This document shows positions 2,455 to 6,565 of a stretch of DNA of 7,725 nt, in pieces (within the stretch, counting starts at the first letter, position 1; every line of letters starts with the position of its first letter). Source of the DNA: a virus (Duplodnaviria > Heunggongvirae > Uroviricota > Caudoviricetes). The position numbers and the translations under genes were made by a program. The notes beneath the pieces were generated by a model. It was not told where the DNA came from. It did no database searches and saw only the letters and a program-made list of their open reading frames with translations. Location of the stretch: the IMG/VR virus record IMGVR_UViG_2778261422_000002; one strand, given 5' to 3'.

Positions 2455-2552
2455 ACAGCATCAGGAAAAATGAAGAACTATTTTTAAGCAGAGGCTTAAG
2501 CATGCCAGCGTTAATTAATCCAGGCAATGTTCAGTTTTCGGTTATAAATTTC

Positions 2553-2582
2553 TTGCCTCACCAGGAATGCGCGGGATATAGT
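2553..2582 (+). promoter_or_regulatory. Candidate sigma70 promoter: -35 TTGCCT (2553-2558), -10 TATAGT (2577-2582), 18-bp spacer
   Basis: Hexamers read directly; predicted start near 2587-2590. This would drive the short terminated transcript and/or the leader of the replication operon. No experimental support. Confidence 0.3.
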
Positions 2583-2587
2583 TTAAA

Positions 2588-2667
2588 GGTTGCCGCAAAA
2601 TCGGCAGCCGGGCGTAGGAACCCGTGTAATCTAACGGCGACACAACACGCGCCAGGCGTGTTTTTTT
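2588..2667 (+). ncRNA. Putative small terminated RNA of about 80 nt, possible analogue of the P4 CI immunity RNA or an attenuator leader
   Basis: Region between the candidate promoter and the intrinsic terminator. It contains box1 CGTAGGAAC (2613-2621) and box2 ATCTAACGG (2629-2637), both repeated at the RBS of the downstream gene. The overlapping ORF has an implausible translation. Length and position recall the P4 CI RNA; that is an analogy, not demonstrated homology. Confidence 0.3.
2644..2667 (+). terminator. Rho-independent terminator: stem 2644-2650 / 2656-2662, loop GCCAG, U-tract to 2667
   Basis: Read directly: ACACGC (2645-2650) pairs with GCGTGT (2656-2661), then seven consecutive T (2661-2667). 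An alternative outer helix CGACACAA (2638-2645) / TTGTGTCG (2666-2673) is also possible. Confidence 0.5.
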
Positions 2668-2790
2668 GTGTCGTAGCTTTGACTCACCTAAAATTTATGG
2701 TGTGGTGGCTGACTGCATGTTTTTATTTTTTACGCCACATCATCAGAATTATGGTAGTCCAGGCGGGGCAGCTTTCGGGCTGGCCGGTAT

Positions 2791-2880
2791 CCGTTAGAGC
2801 CGGTATTCCTACCCCCGTCTGGGCTACCACCCATGAGCGTAGGAACTCCGGTGGTAGCGTTACCCGCTATCTAACGGAGG
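2791..2880 (+). promoter_or_regulatory. Leader RNA element: an upstream arm complementary to box1 and box2, plus a second box1/box2 copy overlapping the Shine-Dalgarno of the 2889 gene
   Basis: Read directly: arm CCGTTAGA (2791-2798) is the exact complement of TCTAACGG, and TTCCTAC (2806-2812) is the exact complement of GTAGGAA. Downstream copy: CGTAGGAAC at 2838-2846 and ATCTAACGG at 2869-2877, whose final GG are the first two bases of GGAGG (2876-2880), 8 nt before ATG 2889. Interpretation as an RBS-sequestering switch is inference. Confidence 0.3.
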
Positions 2881-2888
2881 TTGCCATT

Positions 2889-3092
2889 ATGGCTACAGTC
2901 CCTGCTTTATCTCACCCTGAATTTACCTTTGTCTTTCTGGCTGTTCGCCGTACAGACCGTGATGCCTGTCCACGTCCTGTGCGTGTAATCGCAGACTGCG
3001 AGCATGCTGCACGCCTTAAACTTGCCACTGAATTTATCCTGAGCTTTGCTGCCCGTATCCCTGTGAAAAGTGCCGGGGAGGTGGTTGCATGA
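2889..3092 (+). CDS. Small hypothetical protein, 67 aa, first gene of the replication operon
   Basis: GGAGG (2876-2880) 8 nt before ATG 2889; stop TGA 3090-3092 overlaps the next start as ATGA. The ORF-track ORF 2502-3092 is this gene plus an upstream in-frame extension that I consider non-coding. Confidence 0.5.
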   Translation: MATVPALSHPEFTFVFLAVRRTDRDACPRPVRVIADCEHAARLKLATEFILSFAARIPVKSAGEVVA

Positions 3093-3325
3093 AATCCATG
3101 AATTTTAAGCAAGGCTGCATATTGAGCGAACTGGGTGAGAGTCGTCTGTTACGGGCGGCACTGGCCAGTGAGTTTCTTGCAGAGGTCCTGTCCGTTCCCA
3201 CAGTGAATGGAGCGAGAACTGTTTCCGCGGAAGGCGCTGCGGCTTTAGTGGCCTGTATTGCCGAACAACTGGATGGCGTTGTTAAGGAAACCAGCACAAT
3301 TAAGGGAGAGATGCGCGATGAATAA
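3089..3325 (+). CDS. Small hypothetical protein, 78 aa (possibly epsilon-like by position; not recognised by sequence)
   Basis: GGGGAGG at 3075-3081, 7 nt before ATG 3089, which overlaps the upstream stop (ATGA). The translation is rich in Ala, Leu and Glu and looks helical. The positional analogy to the P4 left operon is inference. Confidence 0.5.
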   Translation: MKSMNFKQGCILSELGESRLLRAALASEFLAEVLSVPTVNGARTVSAEGAAALVACIAEQLDGVVKETSTIKGEMRDE

Positions 3326-3728
3326 TAATCAAAATTTAAAGGCGCATGCTTTACGAACAGCAGTCTTACGGTACTACATTGCTGATGCATTCATTTCCTT
3401 AATGGAGCGTGTTCATAATGAACCTGTTTATATTGAAGATGGCGAACGAATAGAACTCACCCACGAAAAAGTGGTGAGCAATATTATTTACCATATTGAA
3501 ATGCCGTGGGTGAATGAGTTTGGGGCTGATGCTGGTTGCATACTGGCCGCAGAGAAACTGGAAAAAATGCTTAAACCAGGCTTTATGTCAGAAAATATTC
3601 GCCTGTCAGTTTTTGGTGTCACAGAGATGCGTGAGGTTTACCGGGATATTATTTTCGGTGCACCTGATGGCGAACTACCCGAAGGTTTTGAATTTGTGAA
3701 GCCGGAAGGTCAGGAGGTGCTGCTGTGA
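3318..3728 (+). CDS. Hypothetical protein, 136 aa from ATG 3318, immediately upstream of and coupled to the primase
   Basis: AAGGGAGAG (3302-3310) 7 nt before ATG 3318; the ORF-track start at 3258 lacks an RBS and overlaps the preceding gene. Stop TGA 3726-3728 overlaps primase start GTG 3725 (GTGA). By position it is analogous to the ORF preceding alpha in P4; no sequence identification. Confidence 0.6.
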   Translation: MNNNQNLKAHALRTAVLRYYIADAFISLMERVHNEPVYIEDGERIELTHEKVVSNIIYHIEMPWVNEFGADAGCILAAEKLEKMLKPGFMSENIRLSVFGVTEMREVYRDIIFGAPDGELPEGFEFVKPEGQEVLL

Positions 3729-6022
3729 AAACACAGTCTGTATCCACGATTTCCGGGGCTGCGACTGGGCGCTGGCCTTATATCCTGTCAGCATTAGGTA
3801 TCAAAGTACCGTCCGCAGGACATCATGGGGCTTGCCCTGCCTGTGGTGGCAAAGATCGCTTTCGACTGGACGATAAAGCGGGGCGTGGGACGTGGTTTTG
3901 TAATCAGTGCGGTCATGGCGATGGTCTTGATCTGGTTCGTCTGGTGACAGGAAGAAAGATAAAAGAAGCCGCCGGGATGGTATCTGAGGCGCTTGCATTA
4001 CCAGAAATACAGGAGAAGCCCGCTTTGCCCGCCAGGAAAAAGGCCGCAGGAAAAGAAGCGGGTGCGGAGCGATATACCAGACTCAGACAGCAGTCCTGCA
4101 ATGGTGAGCCGGTCTATCTGACAAACAAGGGCTTACACGGCTATTCACTTCCCTTGCTGTCACAGCCTTTGAATCTGGCCGGAATAACATTTTCCTCCGG
4201 TTCATTACTGCTGCCGTTGACGGATATCTCCGGGAATATTACTGGTGGTCAGCTTATCAATCCTGACGGGGATAAAAGTCTGCTGCCAGGTAGCCAGCTG
4301 TCTGGCGCATTCATTGCCCTGACCGATATACCCGCTGAAACACCTGAACAGGTGATTATCACTGAGGGTTTTGCCACGGCGCTTACCGTCAGTCTGCTGA
4401 CTGAAGGATGGATCGTGGCGGCTGTCGCTGCCACCAATTTACTGAAGGTGACGGAGCAGATCCGAAAACGCTGGCCGGAAACCCGGATCATTCTGGCCGG
4501 AGATAATGATCTGGCTGACGGGAAAGAAAACACCGGGCGTATTCAGGCAGAGAAAGCCGCCAAAGCGGTGGATGGCTGGGTAACGCTCCCTCCGGTACGC
4601 CATAAGGCTGACTGGGATGATTATCGGCAGGAAGTTGGGAAAGAACGGGCGAGAGATGCCTTTCGTGAAGAAATGACGCTGCATGGCAAAGGGCAGACCC
4701 GTTTACCAGAAGGGTTCCGGCTGACAAAAGAATATTTGTGGTACGACAAGCTGGTTAATAAGTCGGATGGCGATACGGAGATACGTAATATCAAAATTTG
4801 CAGTCCGTTGCGGGTGACGGCAATCACCAGTGATGCTGATGGGAGTAATTACGGGCGTTTGCTGGAATGGGAAGATACCAACGGAAACAGCCGTAAATGG
4901 GCAATGCCGATGGAGATGCTGGGTGGCAGCGGGGAAGAGCTGCGCCGCGTTCTGCTGGTTAACGGGCTTTCGTACATCAACATTAACGGCATGGCCAGAG
5001 CATTCCTGATGGAATATATCTCGCTGTGTAAACCGGACAGAAAAGTAACCTGTGTGAATAAAACGGGCTGGCACGGCGGGGTTTACGTTCTCCAGGATGA
5101 AGTGATAGGGCGCGAAGCCCAGTCAGTCATCTTACAAACATCGAGCGTGCAGGGGCGTGATTTTCGTGTCAGCGGCACATCAGCGGACTGGCGTGAAAAT
5201 ATAGGCCGTTACTGCATAAAGAATGCCCGTCTGGCCTTTGCGGTGAGTCTGGCATTTGCTGCCCCCCTTCTGAAACTGGTTGGTATCGGCGGTGGAGGTT
5301 ATCACCTCAAAGGGGAATCAACAGACGGTAAAACCACGACGATGAAAGTGGCTGCATCAGTATGTGGTGGAACAGATTTCTGGCATACGTGGCGGGCGAC
5401 GGGGAATGCCTTAGAAGGAACGGCGAGCCGCCGCAATGATGCCACGCTGATGCTGGATGAAATCCGGGAGGTTGACGGCAGGGAGGCGGGGAATATCGCT
5501 TATATGCTGGCTAACGGGCAGGGCAAAGCCAGAGCCAGAACAGATGGTTCGGTAAGGGAAACCAACCGCTGGAATCTGTTGTTTCTGTCCACCGGGGAAC
5601 TGTCACTGGTGGAACATGCGGCAAGCGCCGGGGAACGTACGTATGCCGGGGTTGAGGTCAGAATGATCCAGATCCCAAGCGATTCGGGCAAATATGGCGT
5701 GTTTGAAGAACTTCATGGCTTCAGTAGCGGGAAAAACCTGGCTGAGCATCTTGAGCAGCACGTAGCGCATTATCATGGCGCACCATTCCGCGACTGGCTG
5801 CATTGCCTGACCGCTGATCTGCCGGAACTGACCAGCCAGGCGAAAGCCTTATTGAAAGAGTACACCCGAAGGCTGACGCCGGAAAATGCCGGGAATCAGG
5901 ATGGCCGGAGGGAGAAGCCTTTCGTGCCGCTCAACGTTGTCTGGCTGCATGGATGGCTGACCGGGGCCATACAGCTAATCAGGAAGATAAAGCGGCACTT
6001 GAACAAGTACGGGACTTCATGA
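3725..6022 (+). CDS. Alpha-type bifunctional primase-helicase (zinc-ribbon, TOPRIM primase, SF3/D5-like P-loop helicase), 765 aa
   Basis: CAGGAGGTG (3711-3719) 5 nt before GTG 3725. Zinc ribbon CPACGG...CNQCGHGDG; TOPRIM motifs ITEGFATA and ILAGDND; Walker A GESTDGKTT; Walker B LMLDEI. This architecture is the hallmark of the P4 alpha / PICI pri-rep family. Size is close to P4 alpha (777 aa, recalled). Confidence 0.9.
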   Translation: MKTQSVSTISGAATGRWPYILSALGIKVPSAGHHGACPACGGKDRFRLDDKAGRGTWFCNQCGHGDGLDLVRLVTGRKIKEAAGMVSEALALPEIQEKPALPARKKAAGKEAGAERYTRLRQQSCNGEPVYLTNKGLHGYSLPLLSQPLNLAGITFSSGSLLLPLTDISGNITGGQLINPDGDKSLLPGSQLSGAFIALTDIPAETPEQVIITEGFATALTVSLLTEGWIVAAVAATNLLKVTEQIRKRWPETRIILAGDNDLADGKENTGRIQAEKAAKAVDGWVTLPPVRHKADWDDYRQEVGKERARDAFREEMTLHGKGQTRLPEGFRLTKEYLWYDKLVNKSDGDTEIRNIKICSPLRVTAITSDADGSNYGRLLEWEDTNGNSRKWAMPMEMLGGSGEELRRVLLVNGLSYININGMARAFLMEYISLCKPDRKVTCVNKTGWHGGVYVLQDEVIGREAQSVILQTSSVQGRDFRVSGTSADWRENIGRYCIKNARLAFAVSLAFAAPLLKLVGIGGGGYHLKGESTDGKTTTMKVAASVCGGTDFWHTWRATGNALEGTASRRNDATLMLDEIREVDGREAGNIAYMLANGQGKARARTDGSVRETNRWNLLFLSTGELSLVEHAASAGERTYAGVEVRMIQIPSDSGKYGVFEELHGFSSGKNLAEHLEQHVAHYHGAPFRDWLHCLTADLPELTSQAKALLKEYTRRLTPENAGNQDGRREKPFVPLNVVWLHGWLTGAIQLIRKIKRHLNKYGTS

Positions 6023-6365: not shown

Positions 6366-6554
6366 GGTAACACTGGTAACAGAGGTAACGCCTGCTACTG
6401 ATGCGGTTCTTCAGTGTTACCAGTCAAAAATACTGACTGGTAACACTGGTAACAAAAAATGGTGTGTTACCACGCGTTACCTCTTGATTATGCTAACTGG
6501 TAACGGATTAAGTCCTTTTAAATCAATAACGTTACACGTGTTACCAGTGTTACA
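6366..6554. repeat. Iteron array: at least 10 copies of GGTAAC/GTTACC in both orientations plus 2 GTTACA variants; probable replication origin
   Basis: Read directly: GGTAAC at 6366, 6375, 6384, 6439, 6448 and 6499; GTTACC at 6416, 6466, 6476 and 6540; GTTACA at 6531 and 6549. Several sit in the longer unit CACTGGTAACA or its complement. P4 ori and crr consist of short iterons (type I TGTTCACC, recalled) bound by the alpha C-terminal domain; here the core is TGTTACC. Confidence 0.6.
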
Positions 6555-6565
6555 CGTTTAGAACA

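Follow-up and report, generated by a model that had tools for sequence, protein, structure and literature searches.

Upstream of the replication genes in the window (the whole 7,725-nucleotide stretch of DNA analysed) lies a region in which two short sequences each occur twice and are complemented by an arm between the copies. An earlier note, made from the sequence alone, read this layout as an RNA-based switch that places a short terminated transcript ahead of a replication operon. Two questions follow: is the layout real, and, if so, is the switch of a kind already known? The analysis below indicates that the locus is very probably the immunity (lysogeny-maintenance) region of a P4-like satellite prophage, orthologous to the P4 PLE-seqA-cI-seqC-kil/eta region and built around an antisense RNA of the C4 family. 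The switch type is already known, and knowledge of its mechanism is unchanged by this element. What is new is the element's own recognition sequence, in an unstudied E. coli P4-like prophage.

Architecture of the locus

The features of the locus are listed below in window coordinates.

2502-3092, + strand: eta-like open reading frame of 196 aa, with a Phage_ASH region and an Icd-like C-terminus; it holds the promoter, both RNAs and kil
2553-2582, + strand: PLE-like sigma-70 promoter from a promoter scan, TTGCCT (2553-2558), 18-nt spacer, TATAGT (2577-2582)
2589-2667, + strand: SeqA/IsrK-like leader RNA of about 78 nt (Rfam isrK, RF01394), with hairpin 1 (2589-2608), hairpin 2 (2609-2624, a1 in its loop), a linker with b1, and the t1-like terminator at which it ends
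2614-2620, + strand: a1 box GUAGGAA of seqA (box 1 of the earlier note), complementary to a'
2630-2637, + strand: b1 box UCUAACGG of seqA (box 2 of the earlier note), complementary to b'
2644-2667, + strand: intrinsic terminator from a terminator scan, equivalent to P4 t1, with a hairpin (2644-2662) followed by a T7 run
2747-2834, + strand: C4/CI antisense RNA gene (Rfam C4, RF01695), with a closing stem (2752-2768 with 2813-2829) and two internal hairpins
2790-2798, + strand: b' of seqB, UCCGUUAGA, in the loop of the second C4 hairpin; specificity determinant
2806-2812, + strand: a' of seqB, UUCCUAC, in the single-stranded C4 junction
2823-2858, + strand: alternative hairpin, pairing the 3' strand of the C4 stem (2823-2831) with 2850-2858, a2 in its loop
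2839-2845, + strand: a2 box GUAGGAA of seqC, with 96% of cells paired in the 66-locus alignment
2870-2880, + strand: b2 box of seqC, UCUAACGGA (b2 itself 2870-2878), overlapping the Shine-Dalgarno GGAGG (2876-2880)
2889-3092, + strand: kil/icd-like gene of 67 aa, in frame within eta and the first to be translated from the PLE-like promoter
3089-6022, + strand: downstream controlled operon, comprising genes for a 78-aa protein, a protein weakly matching DUF5375 and a primase-helicase; its position matches the P4 alpha operon

Checked against the sequence, the positions given in the earlier note for the promoter, the terminator, the boxes, their second copies and the arm all proved accurate. The repeats read (G)CGTAGGAAC at 2612/2613-2621 and 2837/2838-2846 for box 1 and ATCTAACGG at 2629-2637 and 2869-2877 for box 2, and at the DNA level the arm comprises CCGTTAGA (2791-2798) and TTCCTAC (2806-2812), exact complements of both boxes in antiparallel order. 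The Shine-Dalgarno GGAGG stands 8 nt ahead of the kil ATG. Single repeats of 8-10 nt are frequent in the window, where seven direct-repeat families were found.

The promoter scan matches 9 of 12 consensus positions, and pairwise alignment shows the same promoter hexamers in P4. Across an alignment of 66 related loci the -10 hexamer is TAYAGT in 49, most have TTGCnn or TTGACn as the -35, and the distance to the RNA start is fixed; the sequence of the promoter spacer is variable. Over about 400 nt the window is 71% identical to the P4 immunity region (blastn, E = 3e-49). The earlier note had likened the locus to P4 in logic, not sequence; the analogy holds, but the denial of sequence resemblance was mistaken.

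Covariation and RNA structure

Covariation was scored in the 66-sequence alignment, with partners slid by 1-3 columns as the control, and specificity was counted in 67 related loci with full flanks. For the upstream pairings (a1/a' and b1/b' together), 96.3% of cells are paired and the covariation score reaches 0.484, the slid controls staying at or below 0.097; taken singly, a1/a' has 97% of cells paired with three covarying pairs, and b1/b' 95% with six. Pairing of the arm with the downstream boxes holds in 94-96% of cells, both partners having changed in six of the b pairs and three of the a pairs; b2/b' alone has 94% of cells paired and six covarying pairs. When the internal C4 and isrK helices are taken together with a'/a2 and b'/b2, 95.4% of cells are paired, 29 pairs are double-changed, and the score is 0.278 against at most 0.074 when slid. 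Within this set the C4 closing stem pairs in 97.5% of cells with nine covarying pairs, and all seven pairs of isrK hairpin 1 have changed on both sides. One pair of the terminator stem occurs as G-C in 36 loci and as C-G in 24, with an invariant T run, in line with the short terminated leader transcript that the earlier note had predicted. A further helix around the terminator (2638-2645/2666-2673) was without covariation and was dropped.

The b' loop carries 22 different hexamers among the 67 loci, each matched by its targets. Counting G-U pairs, the 8-nt complement is fully paired upstream in 59 of these loci and downstream in 60. For b1 the complement is exact in 51 and fully paired with G-U in 59, a difference which argues that the pairing operates at the level of RNA and not DNA. 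Chance does not readily generate such an arrangement: the full layout, defined as a pair of 7-mers inside 25 nt that are both complemented by two or more copies elsewhere, arose in 2 of 3000 dinucleotide-preserving shuffles of 2540-2900. The comparative data thus settle that the box and arm layout is real. They bear out the view that control is RNA-based, with reverse-complement covariation that tolerates G-U, and that there are three complementary copies whose pairings covary across the 66 loci, the copy at the ribosome binding site being open to occlusion since b2 overlaps GGAGG.

The Rfam search suggested by the earlier note identifies the RNAs concerned. The C4 model (RF01695) matches over positions 1-87 of 87 with 81 bits against a gathering score of 45 (E = 3.1e-15), and isrK (RF01394) matches 2589-2666 with 71.8 bits against 50. 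The c4-a1b1 model (RF03163) falls below its gathering score in the window (43.7 versus 46.7 bits); P4 itself gives the same three matches, with c4-a1b1 likewise slightly under the gathering score at 44.1 bits. The bases of the c4-a1b1 match are also covered by the isrK match.

The 88-nt C4 RNA has a minimum free energy of -47.8 kcal/mol (z = -5.08), and the predicted fold recovers the closing stem and both hairpins. In this modelled structure the recognition sequences are exposed, b' in a loop and a' in the junction. What the earlier note had taken for a bare cis-acting arm is hence better described as the exposed loop and junction of a stable C4/CI RNA. By homology the mature RNA would run from about 2752/2753 to about 2821-2833, and the 3' ACCACCCA tail after the C4 stem is compatible with an RNase P substrate. 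Predicted duplex energies are -11.3 kcal/mol for b1 with b', -9.3 for a2 with a' and -13.5 for b2 with b'; cognate duplexes thus span -9.3 to -13.5 kcal/mol, while those with P4 targets reach only -3 to -6.6, at other positions.

In the minimum free energy fold of the longer read-through leader, a1 and b1 are paired in cis with a' and b', and this seqA-seqB form (-129.5 kcal/mol) is near isoenergetic with the C4-folded form (-128.3 kcal/mol). The 3' strand of the C4 stem also has a second partner: the alternative hairpin at 2823-2831/2850-2858 is paired in 96% of cells, with six pairs changed on both sides in the 66 loci, and is mutually exclusive with the outer C4 stem. It is present in all seven C4 systems examined, this element included, and recurs at the same offset with 9/9 pairs in P4, a P1-like plasmid, PY54, an Stx2a phage, an O157 P4-like element and a lambdoid ash gene. 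We found no description of it in the literature consulted on C4/P4 systems. Both C4 strands thus have conserved alternative partners (seqB with seqA, the stem 3' strand with 2850-2858), and we tentatively raise the idea, to which we give about one chance in four, that the leader is truly bistable. If so, the alternative hairpin might set the fate of the read-through transcript as repressor RNA or as target, and the short SeqA RNA might adjust the outcome in trans in the manner of IsrK; the hairpin might instead mark a 3' processing site or a site of CI-dependent t4 termination. A cis hairpin over the Shine-Dalgarno (2846-2850/2875-2879 plus 2853-2859/2865-2871) also appears in minimum free energy folds; 71% of its cells pair, with covariation barely above the slid controls.

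The nested reading frame and the genes downstream

The open reading frame at 2502-3092 matches Pfam Phage_ASH (PF10554) over aa 26-141 (E = 3.1e-34) and the NCBIfam phage_ICD_like family over aa 141-188. Its ATG lies upstream of the -35 hexamer (2553) and in frame with the kil ATG, an arrangement conserved in most loci, and 64 of 70 loci share this same open frame across C4. The eta gene of P4 encloses the promoter, seqA and CI, with kil nested in frame (PMC10111431). The frame is thus a homologue of P4 eta and coexists with the RNAs. The earlier note had set a conserved protein across this region against its RNA switch; the frame is indeed conserved, but the RNA system stands beside it, as in P4. 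We also considered whether the Phage_ASH frame is a spurious, mis-called protein and rejected this, given that it is open in 64 of 70 loci, follows indels, and has a counterpart in the literature on P4 eta.

Codon-position entropies in the spacer are 0.63, 0.92 and 0.85, without the signature of third-position wobble, while those of kil are 0.64, 0.53 and 1.16, with that signature present. In the spacer, selection therefore seems to act on translatability and not on amino-acid sequence. The Kil protein is 51% identical to P4 Kil (E = 8e-17) and scores 66.9 bits against a cut-off of 25 in phage_ICD_like.

Two small genes precede the primase-helicase gene (3725-6022), whose product carries Zn_Ribbon_Prim, Toprim_3 and DUF927 domains. 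The controlled operon thus encodes satellite replication functions, and the placement of the switch ahead of an alpha-like primase operon in the earlier note is upheld. The replication protein has a DUF927/Toprim architecture and is likened to P4 alpha by position. No Ant-type gene lies downstream, replication genes being found there instead. In the annotation of an identical locus in E. coli A5, the element has an integrase adjoining tRNA-Arg, an AlpA gene and an Ogr/Delta gene, with neither sid nor psu annotated. Between eta and alpA stand a hairpin (2428-2449) and two extra genes, with a P2-family capsid gene among them.

Proposed mechanism and relation to known immunity systems

C4-type RNAs (CI in P4, C4 in P1) are processed trans-acting repressors, cut from a longer transcript by RNase P and stable at about 70-80 nt. 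In P4, CI RNA brings about premature termination at t1, t4 and the Rho-dependent timm, and the replication operon stays off; the details of t1, t4 and autoregulation in P4 are reportedly set out by Briani et al. in 2000. Of these sites, only a t1-like intrinsic terminator is visible in the sequence here. CI RNA of P4 acts by pairing with seqA and seqC, and IsrK is a structural homologue of SeqA RNA (PMC4825925); in P4-like prophages, IsrK is the counterpart of seqA, and C4 that of CI (PMC3632133).

Taking all dynamic steps over from P4, P1 or Gifsy-1, we propose the following. The constitutive promoter at 2553-2582 would initiate transcription at about 2589, and many transcripts would end at the terminator (2644-2667), yielding the leader of about 78 nt with the first target copy (seqA, that is a1 plus b1). 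Read-through transcripts would carry the C4/CI RNA with its long closing stem and two hairpins, which, as in P4 and P1, would be excised by RNase P and 3' trimming and accumulate. Its exposed b' (UCCGUUAGA) and a' (UUCCUAC) could then pair in trans with seqC (a2, b2) on nascent transcripts, hiding the kil Shine-Dalgarno; with kil untranslated, transcription would end prematurely and the primase/replication operon would remain off. Pairing of CI with seqA would strengthen the first terminator and reduce CI synthesis, giving autoregulation. On transcripts from an upstream helper-activated promoter, eta would be translated from its ATG through the whole region, blocking RNA folding and termination and so permitting escape from immunity. 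Such escape by eta translation, together with eta, kil and the internal promoter, has been described for P4 (PMC10111431). The earlier note had suggested that the switch could respond to a helper; in P4 that response runs through an upstream late promoter and eta translation, not through the boxes (PMC10111431). Because eta adjoins alpA in P4 but not here, a link to an upstream promoter activated by a helper is less secure in this element.

How far could other readings account for the same data? One is that the short RNA (2589-2667) is itself an active trans decoy, or anti-antisense, that binds seqB, whether in free CI RNA or in the read-through mRNA, and by uncovering the kil ribosome binding site activates the operon. 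It carries exact copies of both boxes and matches isrK above threshold, the read-through fold described above pairs these boxes with the arm in cis at nearly the same energy as the C4 form, and in Gifsy-1 the transcript that reads through from isrK is bound in trans by short IsrK and so switched to a translatable structure (PMC4825925). Against this, in P4, the direct homologue, seqA is the target by which CI RNA promotes termination (PMC4825925) and is essential to establish lysogeny (PMC3632133). In S. Typhi, transposon data class the IsrK-like element of P4-like prophages as required (PMC3632133), a result more in keeping with repression than with activation, and the architecture differs in that the regulated ORF of Gifsy-1 lies inside the C4-like region, not downstream. 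We consider the decoy reading unlikely, at about one in five, and the short transcript, cast as primary effector in the earlier note, is better seen as carrying a target copy (seqA, IsrK-like). Because competition for the arm matches the IsrK mechanism in Gifsy-1 (PMC4825925), it may act as a secondary layer, and the two models may coexist.

The remaining readings dispense with RNA altogether. That this is a plain protein-coding Ash/Eta gene, its repeats and complements being by-products of protein sequence or chance, draws on the Phage_ASH match (E = 3e-34), on annotation of the ORF as a protein by PGAP, and on a frame that is open in most homologues, with spacer length differences mostly multiples of 3. 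Protein constraints do not, however, produce base-pairing-type covariation over 150-250 nt with G-U tolerated; the spacer lacks the wobble signature that kil has, and the covariance-model scores and the z-score of -5.1 are those of RNA structure. Since the P4 RNAs are known to lie inside eta (PMC10111431), the frame can be real and yet coexist with them, and we regard the purely protein-coding reading as highly improbable. Still less credible is that the repeats are DNA-level sites, operators or iterons for a DNA-binding protein, as direct and inverted repeats near a promoter and upstream of replication genes might suggest: the G-U (G-T) wobble changes are strand-specific and preserve RNA pairing only, the box sequences are free to vary given complementarity (22 types), and the boxes are located in loops of conserved RNA hairpins. 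We therefore retain the P4-type immunity model.

On this basis the region should be annotated as a P4-type immunity locus (CI/C4 RNA, SeqA/IsrK-like leader, kil, eta), given that the database labels "ash family protein", "transcriptional repressor" and "Icd-like protein" mask two RNA genes. More generally, the RNA scaffold stays fixed while the 8-nt specificity codes it carries are many and interchangeable, 22 among the 67 loci across many Enterobacterales genera, and each code would determine mutual exclusion among satellites. About 8% of complete E. coli genomes have the code described here together with its capsid-carrying satellite backbone.

Compared with P4, the order of parts is the same, with seqC over the kil Shine-Dalgarno, replication genes downstream, identical promoter hexamers, an eta-like frame that begins upstream of the promoter and a Kil that is half identical. 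The recognition sequences differ: the boxes are GTAGGAA and TCTAACGG here versus GTGAGAA and TTCACAGG in P4, b' is CCGUUAGA versus CCUGUGAA, and a' is UUCCUAC versus UUCUCAC, all three box copies changing together in the pairwise alignment. This predicts heteroimmunity, the element being immune to itself and not to P4. In addition, the seqA-CI spacer is 27 nt shorter, eta is kept from alpA by the two extra genes, one of them for the P2-family capsid, and sid and psu are not annotated in this element.

The immI region of P1/P7 (c4, a1/b1, a2/b2, icd, ant) belongs to the same RNA families (Rfam C4 and c4-a1b1) and shares the two-box logic, b2 lying over the ribosome binding site of a small Icd-like gene that must be translated for downstream expression; Kil here also matches the Icd-like family. 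In P1 immI the Ant antirepressor is translationally coupled to icd, whereas the cargo here is a replication operon. The promoter here is also P4-type, and similarity to P1-like plasmids is limited to the C4-a2 segment (85% over 112 nt).

The isrK-orf45-anrP module of Gifsy-1 (IsrK, STnc1160) likewise places an IsrK-type short terminated RNA and then a C4-like processed RNA behind one promoter, and alternative cis structures join the two parts (PMC4825925), as predicted here. In Gifsy-1, however, the short RNA is a documented trans-activator and the regulated orf45, which leads on to an antirepressor, overlaps with the C4-like segment, whereas here the ribosome binding site target is downstream of C4 and leads to kil and the replication genes. 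Finally, N15-like linear plasmid-prophages (PY54, phiKO2) carry the same isrK-C4 tandem followed by icd, 83-86% identical to the window over the two RNA segments, but in a different host replicon and with different downstream genes; the b' of PY54 is CCGUUGGG, hence another specificity.

Layout of the region and its RNA families

The promoter, terminator, boxes and complementary arm that the earlier note had read from the sequence were all found in place.

Features of the proposed switch, 5' to 3' (coordinates refer to the window)
2553-2582: promoter-like site, TTGCCT, 18-nt spacer, TATAGT
2612/2613-2621: box 1, (G)CGTAGGAAC; second copy at 2837/2838-2846
2629-2637: box 2, ATCTAACGG; second copy at 2869-2877
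2644-2662: terminator hairpin, followed by seven T
2791-2798 and 2806-2812: arm, CCGTTAGA and TTCCTAC, complementary to both boxes

The second copy of box 2 overlaps GGAGG, 8 nt ahead of the ATG at 2889. Short repeats of 8-10 nt are common in this stretch (seven direct-repeat families); the combined layout of boxes and arm is uncommon, being recovered in 2 of 3000 dinucleotide-preserving shuffles.

An Rfam scan for families resembling the P4 CI RNA, which the earlier note had suggested, placed both C4 antisense RNA (RF01695; 2747-2834, 81 bits against a gathering score of 45) and isrK (RF01394; 2589-2666, 71.8 bits against 50) above threshold, with c4-a1b1 (RF03163; 2576-2628) falling slightly below (43.7 bits against 46.7). 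Satellite phage P4 gives the same three matches. In the naming used for P4, the arm corresponds to seqB, which lies within the CI RNA, and the upstream and downstream boxes to seqA and seqC; the P1 names of seqB, seqA and seqC are a'/b', a1/b1 and a2/b2, respectively. In P4-like prophages, seqA is the counterpart of IsrK, and CI RNA that of C4 (PMC3632133); structural homology between IsrK and SeqA RNA is also stated in PMC4825925. The predicted fold of the C4 segment follows the Rfam consensus (-47.8 kcal/mol, z = -5.1), with b' in a hairpin loop and a' in a junction.

Covariation among related loci

An exact-pattern scan for the C4 core, taking one genome per bacterial species, yielded 68 loci, most of them in Enterobacterales and a few in other Proteobacteria. 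Full flanks are available for 67 of these. In this set the b' loop takes 22 different hexamers; allowing G-U pairs, its 8-nt complement is fully paired upstream in 59 loci (exact in 51) and downstream in 60 (exact in 57). That G-U pairs are tolerated indicates that the constraint acts on RNA, not DNA.

Pairs in the named structures were counted on a 66-sequence alignment. For the internal helices of C4 and isrK together with a'/a2 and b'/b2, 95.4% of cells are paired, 29 pairs have changed on both sides and the covariation score is 0.278 (best control with partners offset by 1-3 columns, 0.074). For a1/a' and b1/b' the corresponding values are 96.3%, nine pairs and 0.484 (best offset control, 0.097), and no shuffle matched the observed percentage paired or covariation score for either set. 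The first leader hairpin covaries at 7/7 pairs. Three-way pairing between boxes and arm is thus retained while the sequence changes, as the earlier note had proposed to check, and the RNA folds and the covarying pairing of seqB with both targets are directly supported. The promoter and terminator are likewise conserved: in fixed register from the RNA start, 49 of 66 loci have TAYAGT as the -10 and most have TTGCnn or TTGACn as the -35, with variable spacer sequence, and one pair of the terminator stem occurs as G-C (36 loci) or C-G (24).

A segment 16 nt downstream of C4 (2850-2858) is a second complement to the 3' strand of the C4 closing stem (2823-2831). Pairing of the two would give a hairpin (2823-2858) that holds the a2 target in its loop and excludes the outer part of the C4 stem. 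Across the 66 loci 96% of its cells are paired and six pairs have changed on both sides; all 9 pairs recur, with the offset unchanged, in P4, a P1-like plasmid, PY54, an Stx2a phage, an O157 P4-like element and a lambdoid ash gene, so that, this element included, each of the seven C4 systems examined has the hairpin. We found no earlier description of it in the accessible literature. It could mark 3' processing, display a2 or form part of a CI-dependent termination site. Support was not found for two other candidate helices.

The eta frame and the surrounding satellite

The earlier note had set a conserved protein frame at 2502-3092 against the RNA system. The frame (eta) is indeed conserved: 64 of 70 loci share the frame of the ORF that spans C4, which usually has 180-250 codons and its first ATG ahead of the promoter; in 50 of 65 loci the frame of the nested gene kil (ATG 2889) extends open for 300 nt or more upstream of the kil start; and spacer lengths differ mostly by multiples of three. 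Loci in which the kil ATG is displaced by a single base keep the long open frame in register with the RNAs. The kil product shares 51% identity with P4 Kil and has a match to the Icd-like family. Frame and RNAs are therefore both real and overlap by design, and the frame does not tell against the RNAs. The nesting is that published for P4, in which eta contains the constitutive promoter, seqA and CI, Kil is a truncated Eta from an internal start, and full-length Eta is made only from an upstream late promoter, its translation preventing termination (PMC10111431, summarising Forti et al. 1999). Codon-position entropy has an ordinary coding signature in kil (0.64, 0.53 and 1.16 at positions 1, 2 and 3) and no wobble signature in the spacer between the RNAs (0.63, 0.92 and 0.85); from this split, the frame seems to be kept for translatability rather than for its amino-acid sequence.

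Pfam Phage_ASH matches residues 26-141 of this ORF (nt 2577-2924, E = 3e-34). That the match is an RNA shadow on a spurious ORF was rejected, the frame being conserved across loci. The stretch of the isrK-like and C4 RNAs coincides exactly with the matches to Phage_ASH, to the PGAP 'ash family protein' and to several 'transcriptional regulator/repressor' families of PHROG; in other phages, longer Ash-domain ORFs enclose the C4 segment, and PGAP calls the whole eta frame of strain A5 "Icd-like protein". Annotation by Ash or repressor protein families thus hides RNA genes.

An element of ~10.5 kb in E. coli strain A5 matches the window at 99.9% identity (100% over 2540-3100); it is located between the csc genes and an integrase adjoining tRNA-Arg. 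Of 5426 complete E. coli genomes, 454 carry the immunity region (at least 80% query coverage, 95-99% identity), and more distant relatives occur in 2822 genomes, P1-like plasmids included. Between alpA and eta of this P4-like satellite, in which no sid or psu is annotated, lies a block (527-2414) present in ~440-450 of the 5426 genomes. It comprises an uncharacterised 286-aa gene (527-1387) and a diverged P2-family major capsid gene (1410-2414; PF05125, E = 3.4e-66; PHROG major head protein, E = 2.8e-85), whose identity to the phage capsids of the collection does not exceed ~50%; a satellite with its own capsid gene may merit separate study. Directly after the capsid stop and before eta is a perfect 9-bp hairpin (2428-2449; AGACCCGCT / AGCGGGTCT), whose T run is weak and which may therefore act as a partial terminator separating eta from the genes before it. 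TGT-N12-ACA dyads, of the P2 Ogr/P4 Delta activator-site type, lie upstream of alpA (21-38 and 209-226) and of an ogr/delta-like gene (6548-6565) and may be late promoters that respond to a helper, although four dyads in the window, against 2.0 expected, are by themselves not significantly more than chance. The primase-helicase gene lacks 73 nt relative to A5, at a direct repeat of 12 nt (5897-5908), and encodes 765 rather than 895 aa; this copy may therefore have a truncated replication protein.

Proposed mechanism and comparison with P4

From P4, P1 and Gifsy-1 we infer transcript fate, RNA processing, repression in trans, autoregulation and escape through eta. Transcripts from the promoter would stop at the first terminator or read through, and RNase P would excise the C4/CI RNA, its 3' end then being trimmed. 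Pairing of this RNA with seqC in trans would block kil translation, causing premature termination ahead of the primase operon, while pairing with seqA would strengthen the first terminator and limit the RNA's own synthesis. Both effects of pairing with seqA were reportedly described by Briani et al. (2000). Transcripts from an upstream late promoter would escape by translation of eta through the region.

The covariation of seqB with its targets and the position of seqC over the Shine-Dalgarno bear out the proposed logic of alternative pairing and occlusion of the ribosome binding site; the effector is most probably the C4/CI RNA, not, as the earlier note had it, the short transcript. A decoy role for the short RNA towards the arm is a secondary possibility: the mechanism has been shown for IsrK in Gifsy-1 (PMC4825925), but published evidence in P4-like elements gives seqA a repressive role. 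Folding of the read-through leader (2589-2900) predicts two global folds of near-equal energy, and the minimum-energy one, with seqA and seqB paired in cis (-129.5 kcal/mol, against -128.3 for the C4-folded state), is in keeping with a decoy. Both folds pair the Shine-Dalgarno with CUCCG (2846-2850), a helix to which covariation lends no support. We favour the C4/CI RNA as repressor.

The likeness to P4 had been described as one of logic, not sequence. Homology was wrongly excluded: the two immunity regions are 71% identical (blastn against phage genomes, E = 3e-49), and pairwise alignment shows promoter hexamers, both leader hairpins, terminator, C4 scaffold and downstream gene start in common. 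The boxes, in contrast, differ in a coordinated manner, with GTAGGAA and TCTAACGG in both target copies and CCGTTAGA and TTCCTAC in the arm here, against GTGAGAA and TTCACAGG in the targets and CCTGTGAA and TTCTCAC in the arm of P4. Cognate duplexes reach -11.3 (b'/b1), -13.5 (b'/b2) and -9.3 kcal/mol (a'/a1 and a'/a2); the best duplexes of this arm with P4 targets reach only -3 to -6.6 kcal/mol, at other positions, and heteroimmunity to P4 is therefore predicted. An immunity system already well characterised is found here in a P4-like prophage that is itself uncharacterised and has a specificity code of its own; the conserved alternative hairpin and the specificity types catalogued here extend existing knowledge of it.
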